IMG/VR virus record: IMGVR_UViG_3300032233_003111
Span: 1-47,583 of that record
DNA: 47,583 nucleotides
DNA from: a virus
Taxonomy: Duplodnaviria > Caudoviricetes
Strand: one strand, 5' to 3'
Part shown: positions 3,810 through 39,787 of the stretch, one piece after another
Numbering within the stretch: position 1 is the first letter of the stretch
Layout: every line of letters begins with the position of its first letter
Position numbers and translations under genes: made by a program
Notes under the pieces: generated by a model
What the model was told of the DNA's origin: nothing
Databases searched by the model: none
Seen by the model: only the letters and a program-made list of their open reading frames with translations

Positions 3810-3991
3810 ACGAAGTTCAGTATCTAGTTGGACCAAGGATTCTTCCTGATGGAAGAAACATGGATGCTGACATTATTGCCACGCATCCTATCGTTTCAAG
3901 GCGTCAGATTACTGATCCTGTATCTGACGGCAGCCTTGGCGAGCCCGGTTACGAACCAGGACAGTTTAATCAAGACGGATCTCCTCTTTGA
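3791..3991 (+). CDS. Hypothetical protein (start uncertain, possibly GTG 3806)
   Basis: Fills the gap between flanking same-strand genes. Confidence 0.5.
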   Translation: MQRTEVNEVQYLVGPRILPDGRNMDADIIATHPIVSRRQITDPVSDGSLGEPGYEPGQFNQDGSPL

Positions 3992-3993
3992 TC

Positions 3994-4074
3994 ATGGCAC
4001 TACCAAGAATTATTGCTATTCAAACTTCACAAGGTAACAAGCCAAAGCCTAAAAAGAAAGGCACAAAGCGTTGA
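3994..4074 (+). CDS. Tiny basic peptide MALPRIIAIQTSQGNKPKPKKKGTKR
   Basis: Read manually. ATG lies 2 nt after the upstream stop, and the ORF ends just before the late motif at 4078. Confidence 0.4.
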   Translation: MALPRIIAIQTSQGNKPKPKKKGTKR

Positions 4075-21997: not shown

Positions 21998-22044
21998 TTT
22001 TGTTTGCCTTAAGGCAGACTAACTTTGCTGTCTCTTTTTCTAAA

Positions 22045-25000
22045 ATGTCCGAATTTCGCGATTCTGCGCCATCCGCTCCTGCAGTTTTCTATCGAAGCTA
22101 TTCTCGCCGTAAGCAAGATGGCACTCGTGAATCATTTGCTGAAGCCATCACTAGAACAGTTAATGATCTTGCTGATGTTGGTCAATTGACGGATGCTCAA
22201 CGTGAGCTTTGTCTTGAAATGGGCCTCAAGCAGCATGCATTTCCCAGTGGTCGTGCGCTGTGGGTTGCTGGCACTAATTGGTCTAAGCAACCGGAAAACT
22301 TCCCCGGCTACTACAACTGCCAGTCTGGCTTTATTGATGAAGTCTCCATGTTTGGCCTGCTCATGGAGCTTGCCATGTGCGGCACTGGAACTGGTGCCGT
22401 TCTTGAACAGGATGTAGTAGATAAGCTTCCTGTCGTCGTCAATAATATTTCAGTCGCTGGCCACGTCGATAACGAGGGTAAGGAAGGTGGACAGGAGAGT
22501 ACGGAGATCTACTACGATGATGAAACAGGCCTGTTTGTTATTACTGTTGGCGACTCACGTCGTGGCTGGGTAGACGCTTACCAAGGTCTTATCGAGCTTT
22601 CCATGGGCTTGCGTGAGGAGCTTGCTGAACACTACGAGGCGCTGGATGGTAACATTGATGTTCTGCTCGACCTGAGTCAGGTAAGGCAGGCTGGTGAGCC
22701 TTTGAAAGGCTTTGGTGGTGTTGCCAATCCGATCAGGCTGCTCACGACACTGGAGCGGGTTGCGGCAGTACTCAGCAAGGCGCATGGTCGCAAGTTGACT
22801 GCACTGGAGTGTTGCTTGCTGATTGATGAAGCAGCAAGTGCCGTTGTTGCTGGAAATATTCGTCGCAGCGCAGGAATGCGTCAGTTCAGTGAGCACGACG
22901 AAGAAGCTGCCAGTGCCAAGCTCAACCTGTATTGCCAAGATGAAAATGGCAACTGGAGCGTCGATCCAGAGCGCGAAGCATTGCGTATGGCAAATCATAC
23001 CCGTACGTGGCATCACAAGCCGACGTACGAGGAGATCCTGGATGCTGTAACCAAGCAGTATTATAGTGGTGAAGGGGCTATCCAATATGTTCCAGAAGCC
23101 ATTGCCAGGGCTAATGCAGATCTTCTCGATACAAAAGACAAAAAGTCTTTGTTCTTGAATATCTACTGCAATGATGGCAAGGAATTGGCGACAAATTATC
23201 TTGCACAACTTGCCGAAGAAAAAGGTGAGCCATTCGATGATAAGATTATCTACCATCGGATGCATCGCTATGGCCTTAATCCGTGCGCTGAAATTCTTCT
23301 TAAGGATAACTTATGCGTGGCTGGGGATACTCCGATTATTACGTCTGATGGAATTCATGAAATCAGAGACATTGTTGGCAAAGAGGTCAAAATTTGGAAC
23401 GGTGAGGAGTTCAGTCAAGTCACTCCATTTAAGACTGGTGAAGCAGACAAGCTTTATAGGGTAGAGTTTAGCGATGGAACATTCCTCGATGTAACTAGCG
23501 CTCACAAGTTTTGGGTTAAGCATCGCTTTATGAAGGACTATGTAGAGAAAACGACAGAAGACCTTATGGATCTTGTCGCTTCTTCAAGGTACAAGTTCCA
23601 TACAGAGCCCTTTGTTATCTCTGATCATCCCGGTATCAGCAATCCGCTTGCCTATACGATCGGAGTATTGGTCGGTGATGGAACTGTTCATCCCGATGGA
23701 TATGTATATCTTAAATTGTACGGTAAAAAATCGGAACTTCCTGTTAAGTGTTCTAACAAGGTTGGGCCTATCTATCAAAAGGGTTATAATGTTGAGCGCT
23801 TTGATTGTAAGGGTTTTGACGGAATTTCGCCGACAATGATCAAAGCAGCGAAATATGATCATAAGGCGTTGCTGGAAATTGGAAAGTGGGACAGGGAATC
23901 AATTCTCCAATTCATTGCTGGACTGGCTGATACCGATGGAAGCAATACGGATCACAATGGTATCAGAATTTATGTCTCTAACCGGAAACGCGCAGAGGCA
24001 ATTTACTTGCTTCTGCTGAAATGCGGCATTGGTTCTTCGGTTAATTTAATGGCAAGAGCTGGCGAAGTTACCATTATGGGAGTTAGGTCAGACGACATCT
24101 TCTATTTGCAGGTAACTGACTGTCGGACCATTCCCTGCAAGAGGCTTGATACATCGAAAGGATGCAAGCCAACCCACAAGGGCAAGAATCAGTGTATTAA
24201 CGCTGTCTACCCACTTGCCGGTCGCCATGAAACATATTGTTTCACTGAAGACAAACGTCACAAAGGTGTTTTCAAGGGCACGCTGACTGGGCAGTGCAAT
24301 CTTTCTGAGGTGCATCTTAACACATTATCTTTTAATGGCATTGAGGAGCAAAAACGCGCATTCTATGCTGGTGGACTTCAGGTAGCATCACTTCTTCAGC
24401 ATCGTTTTGTTAATGATCGTCTTCAATACAGTCGCGAAAATGATCCAATCGTTGCAGTAAGTTTTACTGGCTTGTTTGACTTCTTTGTTCATACTCTTGG
24501 CGTGAACTGGTTATCCTGGATGATGAAAGGACGGCCTACCGGCAAGGCTTACAAGGAATTTACTAAAAAGGAACAGTTGTACCTTGAAGCGTGGCGTGAT
24601 GCTGCTAAGCAAGCAGTCATTGATTACTGTACCGAGCAAAACATTCGCATTCCAAATCGTTATACGGCAGTACAGCCCGCTGGTTCAAAGTCATTGCTGA
24701 CTGGAGCATCATCTGGTTGGCATCCGCCAAAAGCACAACGCTTTATCCGACGTATTACCTTTGGAAAACATGATCCGCTTGTAGCGGCACTTCGTGACTA
24801 TGGTTACAATGTAATCCCAGCACAATCTGCTCGCGACGAAGACGGTAATCTTCTCAATGATATTAATGACGAACGCGTGCATGAAGTACTGGTAGAAATT
24901 CCTACAGAAGTATCATGGGCAAATCTGCCAGGAGCTGATCAGTATGATTTAAACCAATTGCCCATCGAAGCGCAATGGGGTCTTTACATGCAAGTACAGC

Positions 25001-25371
25001 GTCATTATACTACGCATACGACGAGTGCAACCCTTGAATACAGGGAGCATGAAATTGAAACCCTTGCGCGTCTTGTCTTTAATGACATTAAGAGCGATGG
25101 TGGTTATATTTCTGTTGCACTTCTTGCACGTTTTGATGCAAATGCAACATTCCCTCGTTTGCCATTTGAGCCAATCGATAAGAATGCTTACGATCGGCTC
25201 ATGGCACAGATCAAAGCCTATCGGTCAGTTCTTCCTGCTGATACATCGATCCTTGATCTGCTTGAGCCCTACGACCGGCCTGATCATATCCTTGAACCCC
25301 AAGATACGGCATGTACGAACGCAGCGTGTCTCGCTAAGGCTGAGCAAGACGAAGCCAGGGGCTTGACCTGA
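22045..25371 (+). CDS. nrdJ: Class II (adenosylcobalamin) ribonucleotide reductase, monomeric RTPR-type, with intein
   Basis: PSGRALW, YNC, VAGNIRRSA, NPCAEI...CNLSEV, TAVQPAGSKSLL, C-terminal CxxxxC. Confidence 0.92.
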   Translation: MSEFRDSAPSAPAVFYRSYSRRKQDGTRESFAEAITRTVNDLADVGQLTDAQRELCLEMGLKQHAFPSGRALWVAGTNWSKQPENFPGYYNCQSGFIDEVSMFGLLMELAMCGTGTGAVLEQDVVDKLPVVVNNISVAGHVDNEGKEGGQESTEIYYDDETGLFVITVGDSRRGWVDAYQGLIELSMGLREELAEHYEALDGNIDVLLDLSQVRQAGEPLKGFGGVANPIRLLTTLERVAAVLSKAHGRKLTALECCLLIDEAASAVVAGNIRRSAGMRQFSEHDEEAASAKLNLYCQDENGNWSVDPEREALRMANHTRTWHHKPTYEEILDAVTKQYYSGEGAIQYVPEAIARANADLLDTKDKKSLFLNIYCNDGKELATNYLAQLAEEKGEPFDDKIIYHRMHRYGLNPCAEILLKDNLCVAGDTPIITSDGIHEIRDIVGKEVKIWNGEEFSQVTPFKTGEADKLYRVEFSDGTFLDVTSAHKFWVKHRFMKDYVEKTTEDLMDLVASSRYKFHTEPFVISDHPGISNPLAYTIGVLVGDGTVHPDGYVYLKLYGKKSELPVKCSNKVGPIYQKGYNVERFDCKGFDGISPTMIKAAKYDHKALLEIGKWDRESILQFIAGLADTDGSNTDHNGIRIYVSNRKRAEAIYLLLLKCGIGSSVNLMARAGEVTIMGVRSDDIFYLQVTDCRTIPCKRLDTSKGCKPTHKGKNQCINAVYPLAGRHETYCFTEDKRHKGVFKGTLTGQCNLSEVHLNTLSFNGIEEQKRAFYAGGLQVASLLQHRFVNDRLQYSRENDPIVAVSFTGLFDFFVHTLGVNWLSWMMKGRPTGKAYKEFTKKEQLYLEAWRDAAKQAVIDYCTEQNIRIPNRYTAVQPAGSKSLLTGASSGWHPPKAQRFIRRITFGKHDPLVAALRDYGYNVIPAQSARDEDGNLLNDINDERVHEVLVEIPTEVSWANLPGADQYDLNQLPIEAQWGLYMQVQRHYTTHTTSATLEYREHEIETLARLVFNDIKSDGGYISVALLARFDANATFPRLPFEPIDKNAYDRLMAQIKAYRSVLPADTSILDLLEPYDRPDHILEPQDTACTNAACLAKAEQDEARGLT
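23314..24294 (+). mobile_element. Intein (327 aa) with LAGLIDADG homing endonuclease, C-terminal Gln
   Basis: Starts CVAGDT. Block B VTSAHKF. LAGLIDADG motifs IGVLVGDG and IAGLADTDG. Block F TYCFTE. Ends GTLTGQ|CNL. Confidence 0.9.
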
Positions 25372-28049: not shown

Positions 28050-29369
28050 CACTGGCTGTTCTGGGATACAAACCCCGTCCTTCAGGACGGCTTTTCCTGA
28101 GACTCCACATACTCCCTGAAAGGATGAAGCAACGCTACCGCTACCGGCTCTACCCCCACCCGCATCAGCAGGTGGCGCTGGCTCGTGCGTTCGGCTGCGC
28201 CCGTGTGGTGTGGAACGACGCCCTGGCCAAGAGCCGTGAGCTGTATGCCGCTGGGCAAAAGACCAGCTACCCCGTCCTGGCCAAGCTCTGCATCACGCAG
28301 GCCAAACAGACGCCAGAGCGGCAGTGGCTGGCGGAGCCCAGTAATGTGGTGCTGCAGCAGTCCGTGCGCGACCTCGATCAGGCGTACCGCAACTGGTGGG
28401 CCAGCCTGAAAGGCAAGCGCAAGGGCGCGAAGGTCAAACCACCACGCTTCAAGAAGCGCCGGGGTGCGCAGTCCGTTCGCTTCATGTCCCATGTGTTCCG
28501 CACAGGGGAAAGGACACTGACGCTCAGCAAAATCGGCCCGGTGCCGATTGAGTGGAGCCGGGATCTGCCTTCGGACCCAAGCAGTGTCACCGTCATCCGC
28601 GATGCAAGCGGGCGATTCTTCGCCAGCTTCGTTGTGGAGGTTGAGCCGACTCCCCTACCAGCGAATGGCAAGGCGGTTGGTATCGATCTGGGCTTGGCAT
28701 CCCTCGCCGTCACTTCCGACGGTGAAAAGCTGGCCCCGCCAAGGTTCCTGCGCTCTGCGCTTAAGCGACTGCGGCGGCTACAGCGCAACCTGAAGCACAA
28801 GCAACGGGGCTCCAATCGCTTGGCCATCGCCAGGCGCAAGGTAGCCAAGCTGCACGCCAAGGTTGGCGATCGGCGCCTCGACTATCTGCATCAGCTTTCG
28901 ACTCGCATCATCCGTGAGAACCAAACGGTGGTGCTGGAAGACCTGAATGTGTCGGGGATGCTGAAGAACAGGAAGCTGGCCCGCTCGATTGCCGATGCAG
29001 GCTGGCGTCAGCTACGGATCCTGCTGGAGTCCAAGGCTGAGCAGTACGGGCGTGAAGTGGTGGTCATCAACCGATGGCTCCCCACCAGCCAGGTGTGCTC
29101 AACCTGCGGACATCACGACGGCAAGAAGGATCTGTCGGTTCGGGAGTGGCAGTGCCCGAGCTGCGGAACGGTCCACGACCGTGACATCAACGCTGCTTTG
29201 AACATTCTCGCCGCCGGACTGGCGGAGAGTCGAAACGGGCGTGGAGCCACGCATCAGTCCACCGCTTCGGTGGCAGCAGGCTGTGAAGCGCCAACCCACC
29301 CGATCGCTGAGGCATCCCCATGCGCAGCGTAGAAGGAATCTCCGCCGTTCACGGCGGGGAGGAAGTCAA
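28050..29369 (+). mobile_element. Non-autonomous IS200/IS605-family (IS1341-type, TnpB-only) element
   Basis: Target TTGAT at 28045-28049. Left hairpin CCGTCC-TTCA-GGACGG at 28075-28090. Right guide GAAT at 29336, hairpin 29340-29359, terminal TCAA 29366-29369. GC-richer than flanks. Confidence 0.88.
28124..29332 (+). CDS. tnpB: RNA-guided endonuclease TnpB
   Basis: YRYRLYP HTH, FGCARVVWN, RuvC GIDLG / VVLEDL / DRDINAALNI, zinc finger CSTCG...CPSCG. Confidence 0.95.
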   Translation: MKQRYRYRLYPHPHQQVALARAFGCARVVWNDALAKSRELYAAGQKTSYPVLAKLCITQAKQTPERQWLAEPSNVVLQQSVRDLDQAYRNWWASLKGKRKGAKVKPPRFKKRRGAQSVRFMSHVFRTGERTLTLSKIGPVPIEWSRDLPSDPSSVTVIRDASGRFFASFVVEVEPTPLPANGKAVGIDLGLASLAVTSDGEKLAPPRFLRSALKRLRRLQRNLKHKQRGSNRLAIARRKVAKLHAKVGDRRLDYLHQLSTRIIRENQTVVLEDLNVSGMLKNRKLARSIADAGWRQLRILLESKAEQYGREVVVINRWLPTSQVCSTCGHHDGKKDLSVREWQCPSCGTVHDRDINAALNILAAGLAESRNGRGATHQSTASVAAGCEAPTHPIAEASPCAA

Positions 29370-31426: not shown

Positions 31427-31526
31427 GTCTGTGCTAACATGCACACATTGATCCCATTCATGGGATCACCAGATTTACCTGGCGGGTGGCACTACCGATG
31501 CAGTGTCGTTGAGTTCTATTAATTTA

Positions 31527-31991
31527 ATGCTTTTTACTAAACAACTTCTTGCCATTACAGCATCCGCCTGTTTAGCTTCTCCCGTTCTTGCTACTCCATC
31601 TTCTGACATCAGAATGCCTGGAGTGGTTTTCGGTGACAAGCCTGGCATGGCAAGCTGGAATCCCTCTAGCCTTAATCAAGTTCGTTCCACTGGTGCCGAA
31701 CTTGCATCAACAGCTAGTTGGTATGGCGTTCCCGATGGCTTCCATGGTCGTCGGACCGCCAATGGCGAGATCTTTGATGCCTATGGCTTGACTGCCGCGC
31801 ACCGCTATCTTCCTTTTGGGACGATGGTTCGTGTTACCAATCTGAATAACAACCGTAGCGTCGTGGTTCGCGTCACCGATCGCGGTCCTGCCGTACCTGG
31901 TCGCATTATCGATCTTTCTCAGGGAGCTGCGGCAAAGATCGGAATGATTTCTTCTGGTACTGCTCCGGTAAGTCTTCAGGTTTTGCGCTGA
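31527..31991 (+). CDS. rlpA: RlpA-like lytic transglycosylase (DPBB domain) with signal peptide
   Basis: [41 protein letters not shown]. Confidence 0.92.
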
Positions 31992-35638: not shown

Positions 35639-37710
<2,072 letters not shown>

Positions 37711-37894: not shown

Positions 37895-38140
37895 TAGGCA
37901 GAATGGTTGCCTGGGTGACCAACCCAGGACTTGCCTCAAGTCTATCATGATCGACTTGAAATAGCGAGTCCCATCCTCGCTGGGTTCATCCGTAAGGCCG
38001 ATGAACGTTTCCCTCCTATAAACCCAGTGAGTTGGGCCTCTGTAACCCGTGAGGCGGGGCTTTTGTTTTTTGCGTCCGGATTGCTACCAGACGTTCCGCG
38101 CTTGTTTGCTGGTCGCTGGGACAACGGCGGCGTTAACCCA
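37895..38140 (-). ncRNA. Candidate structured non-coding RNA or leader
   Basis: TGGTATAAT at 38154-38146(-), dense hairpins and pseudoknot-compatible segments, no convincing ORF. Confidence 0.4.
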
Positions 38141-38159
38141 CATACATTATACCAAGCAA

Positions 38160-38233
38160 TGGCGGGAGCTGGATTTGAACCAGCGGCCTTCAGGTTATGA
38201 ACCTGACGAGCTACCGAGCTGCTCTATCCCGCT
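38160..38233 (-). tRNA. trnM: tRNA-Met(CAU), initiator-like
   Basis: AGCGGGATAGAGCAGCTCGGTAGCTCG-TCAGG-TTCATAA-CCTGA...GGTTCAAATCC...TCCCGCCA, with a 1:72 mismatch. Confidence 0.9.
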
Positions 38234-38249
38234 AAGACCCCGATTTTAA

Positions 38250-38616
38250 CCATCATACGGGGTAAGGGTACCTTCTCCTTGAGGGGCCATGCCCGGTCCG
38301 GGACGGTTGGCCAACCGTGTTGATGGCATGAGTGTGCAAAGCAGTGACTCATGCTCCATCCATTTAACGCCACCGGGGAACAACTGCAGAGAGCTGGACT
38401 GGGCAGACCGGTGACGGCTTCGATTCGGACTTTGTTCCAGAGAACTGCGTCAACCTTCGAAGACTCCGAGCCCGATGCGTCGATTAGAAATTTCCAATCC
38501 ATACAGAGCGGGATGCGCCTCCAGTAGCCAGTCTTCCTTCCCGATGGAAAGGGCAGGCATCGAACCTGCAAGGGCCGGTCCCACTGGAACCGCCGGGAAT
38601 TCCACCCGGAGCGCAC
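38250..38616 (-). ncRNA. Candidate structured ncRNA with a circularly permuted tRNA-like 5' domain
   Basis: Own promoter (38634-38619). T arm GCAGG-TTCGATG-CCTGC followed by acceptor-like hairpin CCTTTCC-ATC-GGGAAGG. Many further hairpins; 3' boundary uncertain. Confidence 0.55.
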
Positions 38617-38630
38617 TAATATTATACCAG

Positions 38631-38665
38631 CACCCCGACCCAGATTTGCACCTGGGACCGATTCT
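38631..38665 (-). pseudogene. 3' fragment of a disrupted tRNA gene
   Basis: AGAAT-CGGTC-CCAGG-TGCAAAT-CTGGG-TCGGGGT-G. TCGGGGT pairs with GCCCCGG at 39117-39111. Confidence 0.65.
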
Positions 38666-38676
38666 TTGGTTAACAA

Positions 38677-38748
38677 CAGCCCCAGTTCGATTCGAACGAA
38701 CGAAACGGTCTTAGAAGGACCGGGTTATATCCACTTAACTATGGGGCC
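38677..38748 (-). tRNA. trnR: tRNA-Arg(UCU)
   Basis: GGCCCCA/TGGGGCT-G acceptor; CGGTC-CTTCTAA-GACCG; GTTCGAATC. Confidence 0.88.
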
Positions 38749-38806
38749 ATGACTTCAGTTTACCAACTTCTAGCATCAGGTCGCTAGAATGTCATAGATC
38801 TAGTCG

Positions 38807-39106
38807 ATGAAAATGGCAACATACAGAGACATGACACCAGAGCAGAAAAGCAGGTTTAATGCGTACTGCGTTGAAAGGTGGAAAAGAAGAAAACGTGAAG
38901 CAATTCAATACAAGGGAGGGCAATGTGAGAACTGTGGGTATTCTAAATGCCAAGAAGCTTTAGAATTTCATCATGTCAATCCCTCAGAGAAAGAGACTGA
39001 CTGGCAAAAATTGCGTCTTCGAAAGTGGAGTAAAATTATGTTAGAGCTTGATAAGTGTCAACTGCTTTGTGCAAATTGTCATAGAGAAGCTCATCGCTTA
39101 CTCTGA
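38807..39106 (+). CDS. HNH endonuclease
   Basis: CENCGY, ALEFHH, ELDKCQLLCANCHREAH. Confidence 0.88.
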   Translation: MKMATYRDMTPEQKSRFNAYCVERWKRRKREAIQYKGGQCENCGYSKCQEALEFHHVNPSEKETDWQKLRLRKWSKIMLELDKCQLLCANCHREAHRLL

Positions 39107-39117
39107 GCTACCGGGGC
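39103..39117 (-). pseudogene. 5' fragment of a disrupted tRNA gene
   Basis: GCCCCGG-TAGCTCAG (acceptor 5' strand + D-arm start), preceded by a TGCTATACT promoter. Confidence 0.65.
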
Positions 39118-39232
39118 AAGTCATAGGCAGTATAGCACATATACCAAAGGCCCCCGAAGGGAGCCGATGGAAGACCAGGATGTCGGACCCGGTTGTGATG
39201 GCTGCTGTGGGGGCGGTGCCATCACTCATACA

Positions 39233-39787
39233 TTATACAGCGATCCAACCAGATTGTGCAACCTGTGCTGAAAAACGCTGCTTGATCTCCTCCCAAGCAA
39301 TAGGAGTATAGTTCGTATGTTCTACACAAACGCAGAAGTACCGAGGATCGATCTGACCAAGATCCATGACGCGCCCCCAGTGGAGGTGACCATGAATATT
39401 GCCATCAAAATTCCGCAGGCTATCAGGATGGATTGGAACGTGACTCAGCGTGAAGTTATCAAGCTTCCAGTAAGCCCTGACTGAGCGAAAGTGCTTGCCA
39501 AGGTGCTTCTCCCAAGGCCAGTCATGATTACCAGCGATAAGAACCTTGTCGCCATTCAGTCTATAGAGGACGTCGAGGCCAACGCGAGGCATTGCTACAT
39601 CGCCAAGGTGATAGACCTTATCAGTGGGCTTGACTACGGCGTTCCACCGTCTGATCATTTCTTCATCGGCTTCATCGGCAGAACGCCAAGGACGCAGCGG
39701 TGTACCATCAGCCCGCAGGAAGGGCCTCTCGTACATCGCCTTGTGGCCGAAGTGCGTATCTGAGACTAGGAAGACGTTTTTTGACAT
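39233..39787 (-). CDS. Calcineurin-like metallophosphoesterase
   Basis: SDTHFGH, YHLGDV, GNHD, LSHVP, HGHLH. Confidence 0.9.
   Translation of the reverse strand: MSKNVFLVSDTHFGHKAMYERPFLRADGTPLRPWRSADEADEEMIRRWNAVVKPTDKVYHLGDVAMPRVGLDVLYRLNGDKVLIAGNHDWPWEKHLGKHFRSVRAYWKLDNFTLSHVPIHPDSLRNFDGNIHGHLHWGRVMDLGQIDPRYFCVCVEHTNYTPIAWEEIKQRFSAQVAQSGWIAV

Follow-up and report, generated by a model that had tools for sequence, protein, structure and literature searches.

Likely break and replacement of a phage tRNA-Arg gene by an HNH nuclease gene with a spare isoacceptor

How does a phage come to carry two pieces of one tRNA gene, with a nuclease gene and a second, complete tRNA gene lying between them? 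This question is raised by a locus in the window analysed here, which is the whole 47,583-base virus record of an uncultured phage. The window encodes terminase, primase, helicase, class II ribonucleotide reductase and CTP synthase. The CTP synthase gene (pyrG) had its best match in Synechococcus sp. UW140 (79%; 1 of 64 parts of the genome collection was scanned), and this single gene suggests that the host is likely a picocyanobacterium.

The elements of the locus are listed in Table 1. Their positions agree with a preliminary description of this DNA: a promoter-like element (P1), a 5' tRNA fragment, the antisense HNH gene, a second promoter-like element (P2), a complete tRNA-Arg gene and a 3' tRNA fragment were all located there. 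The complete gene was called tRNA-Arg(TCT) by ARAGORN, scored 55.9 bits against Rfam RF00005 and folded into a cloverleaf in the MFE structure. When folded together, the two fragments gave a 7-bp acceptor stem, which bears out the pairing that had been claimed for them. The claimed match of the discriminator base was also found, since G73 occurs both in the carried gene and in the intact relative described below; these two tRNAs also have G1.U72 in common. P1, P2 and the third -10-like word are pattern matches, none of which was flagged by a sigma-70 scan, and the window contains 36 matches to TGnTAnAnT. The hairpin before the HNH start appeared in the MFE fold with a z of -1.35, which is not significant; similar hairpins were seen by eye upstream of the homologs at L018, L019 and L060. 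In free-standing HNH homing endonucleases, an RNA hairpin before the gene that restricts its translation is frequent but not a constant feature. The 7-mer CTATGAC lies at 39126, 39084 and 38797 (minus strand), all within 330 nt of the cassette; the rest of the window has three further copies.

Table 1. Features of the cassette site, in minus-strand order (window positions).
Feature	Position	Strand	Basis
Extended -10-like element P1 TGCTATACT, upstream of resident tRNA	39129..39137	-	sequence; identical in L001
5' remnant, nt 1-15 of resident tRNA-Arg(UCU)	39103..39117	-	15/15 plus 4 leader nt identical to L001
Free-standing HNH endonuclease gene (predicted), 99 aa, antisense to the tRNAs	38807..39106	+	Pfam, PHROG, conserved residues
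7-bp inverted repeat, possibly a regulatory hairpin, upstream of HNH start	38768..38789	+	MFE fold
Extended -10-like element P2 TGGTAAACT, upstream of carried tRNA	38757..38765	-	sequence pattern only
Carried tRNA-Arg(UCU), complete, with host-type anticodon loop and without encoded CCA	38677..38748	-	ARAGORN, Rfam, MFE
16-nt linker with Asn-anticodon-loop-like word, 4 nt out of register	38661..38676	-	sequence
3' remnant: diverged T-arm, acceptor 3' strand and G73 of resident tRNA	38631..38660	-	L001 comparison
Third -10-like element, directly abutting 3' remnant	38629-38621	-	pattern only

Evidence that a resident gene was broken came from a relative. Using the neighbouring phosphoesterase as the query, we obtained 10 viral loci, in which synteny at the tRNA site was judged by sequence (L002-L004) or by tRNA calls (L005-L010) and was seen only in L001. 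The phosphoesterase of L001 shares 90% protein identity with that of the window, and the DNA flanks share 85.8% and 84.8%. At the same site, L001 contains an intact tRNA-Arg(TCT) gene (3939-4012), and the HNH gene of the window is absent there. At the left end, 19 contiguous nucleotides are identical between the window and L001 (4 leader nt and tRNA nt 1-15; chance expectation 1.5e-9 in 700 nt), and at the right end the last 10 nt are identical (3.7e-4); these expectations leave tRNA motif conservation out, and synteny is the stronger evidence. On these grounds, the arrangement of the fragments is more than chance. In comparison with L001, 462 window bases, with the HNH ORF as their sole ORF, occupy the place of 49 resident bases (nt 16-64), which is the most that the resident gene can have lost. 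The broken gene and the carried gene are both tRNA-Arg(UCU), with 46 of 74 positions identical, and the carried tRNA is identical to a host-family allele at 50 of 74. The identity of the resident gene was not evident from the fragments by themselves, because the eight matches to the joined-fragment pattern mix Arg(TCT) (two), Val (one) and Thr (five). A pattern built on the downstream RNA matched 16 loci, among which only the contig of L001 was related.

Sequencing run X1 also contained the intact allele. There, the sequence of one contig follows the window up to 39103, departs from it at exactly this position and runs on as resident nt 16-45. On L001, a 335-nt contig of this run spans the whole tRNA with 3 differences at a depth of 3.8, and a 302-nt contig covers the next gene at a depth of 2.8. 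Window-type contigs in X1 had a depth of about 15, compared with 3-4 for the intact-allele contigs, and both tRNA-Arg alleles co-occur within this run. X1 may be the source run of the window, in which case it is not independent; in runs X2 and X3 the locus was not found. The intact allele is known from one genotype, namely L001 and the 98-99% identical X1 strain. The preliminary description had named in advance the comparison on which its reading would stand or fall, and the result went its way: an intact tRNA gene that joins the two fragments in a relative lacking the HNH gene is present in L001 and again in the X1 contig. In both, the anticodon of the uninterrupted tRNA is UCU, the same as in the carried gene. 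The site is thus well supported as the scar left when an HNH gene and a spare isoacceptor overwrote a tRNA gene. Two other candidates were rejected: a group I intron or split tRNA gene, with no intron match and with the D-loop, the anticodon arm and part of the variable region missing (at least nt 16-44), and an integrative element, with no integrase, no att direct repeat and a complete tRNA only 46/74 identical to the resident one.

The right end of the insert is harder to place. Of the last 30 nt of the 3' remnant, 22 are identical to L001, and only the last 10 are identical throughout; the 20 nt before these, which form the remnant T-arm, match at 12 positions (P 0.006 at 85% flank identity). 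The tRNA-Leu common to the window and L001 is identical at 76 of 76 positions. In the remnant, the T-stem can be drawn with an A.G mismatch or, alternatively, with an 8-nt loop. A clean split would not leave a T-arm as diverged as this, and the position of the right junction is therefore uncertain: on the alignment, it may fall within the final 10-13 nt, in which case the T-arm would be of donor origin; alternatively, the resident gene may have differed from L001. The 3' fragment had originally been taken as a piece of the resident tRNA, which holds for the last 10 nt, whereas the T-arm may be donor-derived. A search for the origin of the remnant T-arm gave three matches, none of them within an ARAGORN-called tRNA. 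ARAGORN in relaxed mode returned 109 calls that amounted to noise. A tRNA-Asn origin, suggested by the word in the linker, was rejected because the spacing fails, the gap from anticodon-like loop to T-loop being 19 nt compared with 14-15 in 20 of 24 tRNA-Asn rows.

L001 itself is not an empty site, and no true empty site was seen among the loci examined. It has an extra tRNA-like RNA before the tRNA and an HNH-like ORF after it, both absent from the window, and differs further by a deletion into pyrG. The first of these (L001 3822-3937) is a degenerate tRNA-like RNA with a T-arm, lying directly before the resident tRNA-Arg and not called by ARAGORN. The second (L001 4049-4579) is an unrelated HNH-like gene 3' of the intact tRNA-Arg on the same strand, with a hairpin before it. 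Its match to HNH_3 (E 5e-05) is below the cut-off, only its last 92 codons are listed as an ORF and its 5' part seems out of frame. A search of IMG/VR for relatives of this second HNH found only L001 itself.

We then considered what kind of nuclease the window encodes. The protein matched Pfam PF01844 with 23.4 bits (cut-off 21.4) and PHROG 2255 with an E value of 1.4e-25. Its residues C40, C43, H55, H56, C88, N90, C91 and H92 are common to 90-100% of 83 distinct aligned proteins, and by these matches and residues the HNH domain is intact. The ORF ends three codons past the conserved His96, and its TGA stop (39104-39106) belongs to the tRNA remnant, which is what an insertion junction should look like; many members of the family likewise have their stop codon within an adjacent tRNA gene. 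Three features of free-standing HNH homing endonucleases can be examined at the sequence level, and the predicted protein has all of them: the HNH domain; a gene that is not part of an intron or intein, with no group I intron match at the cassette site and one elsewhere, at 35664-35856; and absence from the homologous locus of a relative, as L001 and the X1 contig lack the gene and L001 is not among the HNH homolog matches. A PDB sequence search with the protein gave nothing under E 0.4, and in a quick tree (74 of 107 rows kept after dropping duplicates and rows without the end motif) it fell in an unresolved basal fork.

The homologs provided a genomic context for this nuclease. Our set of 106 homolog loci combines 26 from viruses with the 80 best of 177 from metagenomes; many are redundant, and they represent 82 distinct homologs, the closest of which shares 68% identity with the window protein. 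In 16 of the 17 best-scoring loci among these partly redundant 106, a same-strand tRNA-Arg(TCT) lies 33-74 nt upstream. Within 150 nt upstream of the 82 distinct homologs, there were 17 same-strand Arg(TCT) genes, 12 other same-strand tRNAs, 3 divergent other tRNAs and 50 cases without a called tRNA, the last including some short contigs or intron-borne genes. Judged by these neighbourhoods, the family favours tRNA-Arg(UCU). Among 374 tRNAs, the three Arg alleles closest to the carried tRNA (52-53 identities) are those of L096/L099, L022/L071 and L093, each of which adjoins a related HNH gene, and this fits a shared donor pool. The SegB-type T-arm motif GGTTCRANTCC is present in the resident allele, absent from the carried gene and the remnant, and kept by most alleles beside the closest HNH homologs. 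A DNA signature that would separate HNH-linked from unlinked alleles was not found for the GCTC D-stem (3/15 versus 5/12, p 0.40). At L076 (1139-1782), an HNH homolog and a tRNA-Arg(TCG) are divergent, and a tRNA D-stem word in antisense follows the stop of the homolog at the contig end; this locus possibly shares the window layout, cut off by the end of the contig.

These observations are probably best explained if the HNH protein is a homing endonuclease of the free-standing kind, SegB-like in action, that overwrote the resident tRNA-Arg with a donor allele. In this scenario, a mixed infection would have exposed the resident tRNA-Arg gene to the predicted nuclease, which would have cut it, and the break would have been repaired from a distant phage donor via short tRNA-motif homologies, so that the HNH gene and a different complete tRNA-Arg(UCU) arrived together in the 462 bases. 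The carried allele would lack the recognition site of the nuclease in its DNA and would maintain the arginine tRNA supply, making the breakage cheap, and the tRNA remnants would be left as inert scars. Later spread into intact-allele phages could proceed as ordinary homing via the conserved flanks (about 85% identical). The two alleles in X1 indicate only an opportunity for biased inheritance in co-infection. The preliminary description had stated that the carried tRNA compensates for the lost one: it is indeed complete and of the same isoacceptor, UCU, while the maintained supply is presumed. We also tentatively consider a more far-reaching version, which is rather doubtful at present: in cyanophage strains that occur together, a single tRNA-Arg(UCU) locus might be contested by two unrelated HNH cassettes, each with a self-immune allele and each cutting that of the other, so that rival selfish genes rather than host selection would drive the turnover of phage tRNA alleles, and the window cassette would be the one that destroys the gene and supplies a whole spare with no intron.

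A unit of HNH gene and divergent tRNA had been proposed as the invader. The broken resident tRNA agrees with an invasion, but the unit was found nowhere else. Two patterns made from the carried tRNA matched 0 loci in IMG/VR; blastn of 38100-39300 against phage records gave only HNH and tRNA-Met pieces in the best 30 of 205 matches; and a divergent tRNA-Arg(TCT) was seen beside 0 of the 82 distinct homologs, all 17 that are linked to Arg(TCT) being on the same strand. The two genes may move as a unit.

Could the exchange have occurred without any activity of the nuclease? By passive recombination, a block of a donor tRNA array with an antisense HNH gene might have been swapped in between conserved tRNA motifs (the D-arm at the left and the T-arm/acceptor at the right), leaving the nuclease as a passenger. 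The foreign look of the remnant T-arm (12/20) would suit such a swap, as would the left junction, located where a highly conserved tRNA motif ends, one with which Val and Thr tRNAs begin as well (6 of the 8 matches), and antisense or divergent homologs do exist in tRNA arrays (L023, L076 and L080, 3 of 82). However, the lost and the gained gene are the same isoacceptor, the one favoured by the HNH family, which is not expected from random motif exchange; we thus regard this as unlikely, though as the most serious of the alternatives. A lower probability falls to an origin in two steps, where the HNH gene inserted alone and destroyed a dispensable tRNA gene, and a later gain or inversion brought in the second tRNA-Arg together with its promoter, so that the two are neighbours rather than one cassette. 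The divergent layout is unique to the window among 18 Arg(TCT)-linked proteins (its own included), the unexplained 16-nt linker and the diverged T-arm suggest more than one event, and the locus is unstable, with the extra RNA, the other HNH and the deletion into pyrG in L001. Against these points, no intermediate having the HNH gene without a spare tRNA occurred in the 106 homolog loci or the three runs, and the alleles to which the carried one is similar adjoin related HNH genes, which makes this history quite improbable.

The preliminary description had further suggested that the cassette could swap in a nuclease-resistant tRNA allele, and in this respect the data did not support it. The corresponding explanation is that the swap was selected since the new tRNA escapes a host anticodon nuclease, with the HNH protein serving as an allele-exchange tool of the phage. 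According to the available text of PMC10264068, phage tRNAs have been proposed to resist host tRNases by anticodon-loop changes, and that of PMC13096335 describes SegB as aiding T6 against a tRNA-cutting defence by amplifying tRNA-Tyr; AGA makes up 21% of the Arg codons in a crude ORF set of the window (171/810). However, the carried loop, CUUCUAA, is the host-family loop (71/71 matches, in 70 of the 81 likely-host-family genomes surveyed, with a pattern that required a canonical D-arm, U/C at position 32 and A/C at 38), whereas the displaced loop, UUUCUAC, deviates at positions 32 and 38. The swap thus ran in the wrong direction for loop-based resistance, and although resistance via the stems or the variable loop may be conceived, we consider this explanation highly improbable.

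How does the preferred reading, an overwriting homing endonuclease, compare with known systems? T4 SegB is encoded between tRNA-Arg and tRNA-Ile and cuts tRNA genes (PMC2330249, in the text available); its recognition motif lies in the T-arm, and conversion of the T2L tRNA region reaches 99.6% (PMC2330249, PMC2988022), and its homologs co-occur with tRNAs, with no isotype preference according to the accessible text of PMC13096335. As far as these three sources go, the window gene is like SegB in being an intron-free endonuclease gene beside a tRNA-Arg and in being absent from the matching locus of relatives, and SegB likewise replaces the tRNA region of a rival, including isoacceptor genes. 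Unlike SegB, the window nuclease is of the HNH and not the GIY-YIG type, as only HNH families matched, and it is not a member of the SegB family. Whereas SegB is intergenic and co-oriented, the window HNH gene lies inside the broken tRNA gene, antisense and with a complete divergent spare, and its family favours Arg(UCU), in contrast to the SegB family. HNH genes are also common in tRNA arrays of mycobacteriophages and cyanobacteria, where they have been proposed to spread and diversify tRNAs (PMC5966550, PMC6409571, PMC8421152, in their available portions). The likeness is an HNH gene tied to tRNA genes; the difference is that the window concerns a single tRNA gene for which both scars and the intact allele are known, and break-and-replace of one gene is not described in the accessible parts of these three papers. 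Our search of the openly accessible literature found no paper on break-and-replace of a phage tRNA gene by a free-standing HNH.

Two further comparisons come from outside the tRNA-linked nucleases. The mechanism of free-standing homing endonucleases in fungal mitochondria brings in a new 3' gene end. Their genes adjoin duplicated 3' ends of atp6 and cob (PMC6279837, available text). The likeness is that endonuclease genes are flanked by a working gene and a displaced portion of it. The difference is that the fungal elements put the 5' part of the resident back to use, whereas at the tRNA site a whole separate RNA gene takes the place of the destroyed resident. The rlpA region of the same phage (31503-33011, plus strand) has the displaced-3'-end layout of fungal atp6 and cob: rlpA is complete at 31503-31991 (Pfam DPBB_1) and is followed by a 277-aa ORF without a Pfam match and a diverged copy of the rlpA 3' end. 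The preliminary description had seen the same logic at both sites. The outcomes are related, but the parallel is loose: rlpA consists of a complete gene plus a duplicated 3' end, while the tRNA site has a whole second gene, preceded by a promoter-like element of its own, inside a broken one. Integrase-driven elements insert in tRNA genes and leave tRNA fragments flanking the insert. The window site resembles them in its target and in the flanking fragments, but it has no integrase and no att repeat, and the target gene was not regenerated.

We thus regard the locus as an unusual form of a known type of mobile gene, in which a selfish element likely broke an RNA gene and likely replaced it. If true, no self-splicing intron is needed for a homing endonuclease to capture an RNA gene, since a spare copy can be written over it. 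Some odd phage tRNA alleles would then reflect escape from selfish nucleases acting at the DNA level and not from host tRNases, with consequences for the interpretation of phage tRNA divergence. Free-standing endonucleases at tRNA genes were already known, and the gain in this respect is moderate. The locus also offers a compact test system with a 99-aa nuclease, two natural tRNA alleles and a mapped left breakpoint.

Several structured RNAs and other mobile genes were observed in the same genome. Downstream of the cassette, window 38620-38505 (minus strand) contains a promoter-led structured RNA with two hairpins, one of which has a compensatory change in L001, a T-arm-like hairpin and a 7-bp stem. 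This stem would be a circularly permuted acceptor stem with G3.U70 and A73, an alanine-like identity. This RNA had no relevant Rfam match, no phage blastn match and no credible tmRNA call, and its copy in L001 is shortened by the deletion into pyrG. On the other side, window 39228-39141 (minus strand; L001 3720-3810) encodes a three-hairpin non-coding RNA after a promoter-like site; it is conserved in L001, with changes mostly in the loops, and has no Rfam match. Another promoter-led, hairpin-rich non-coding stretch without an Rfam match lies 3' of tRNA-Met (38146-37900, minus strand). The group I intron mentioned above splits a tRNA-Leu(UAA) gene (35639-35933, plus strand; Rfam 44.4 bits, below gathering), adjoins tRNA-Leu(TAG) and lies before pyrG, in a region with 99% identity between the window and L001. 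Mobile nucleases are abundant in this phage; the class II ribonucleotide reductase has an intein-like LAGLIDADG insert (22000-25371, plus strand), and an IS605 TnpB-like gene lies at 28124-29332 (plus strand).
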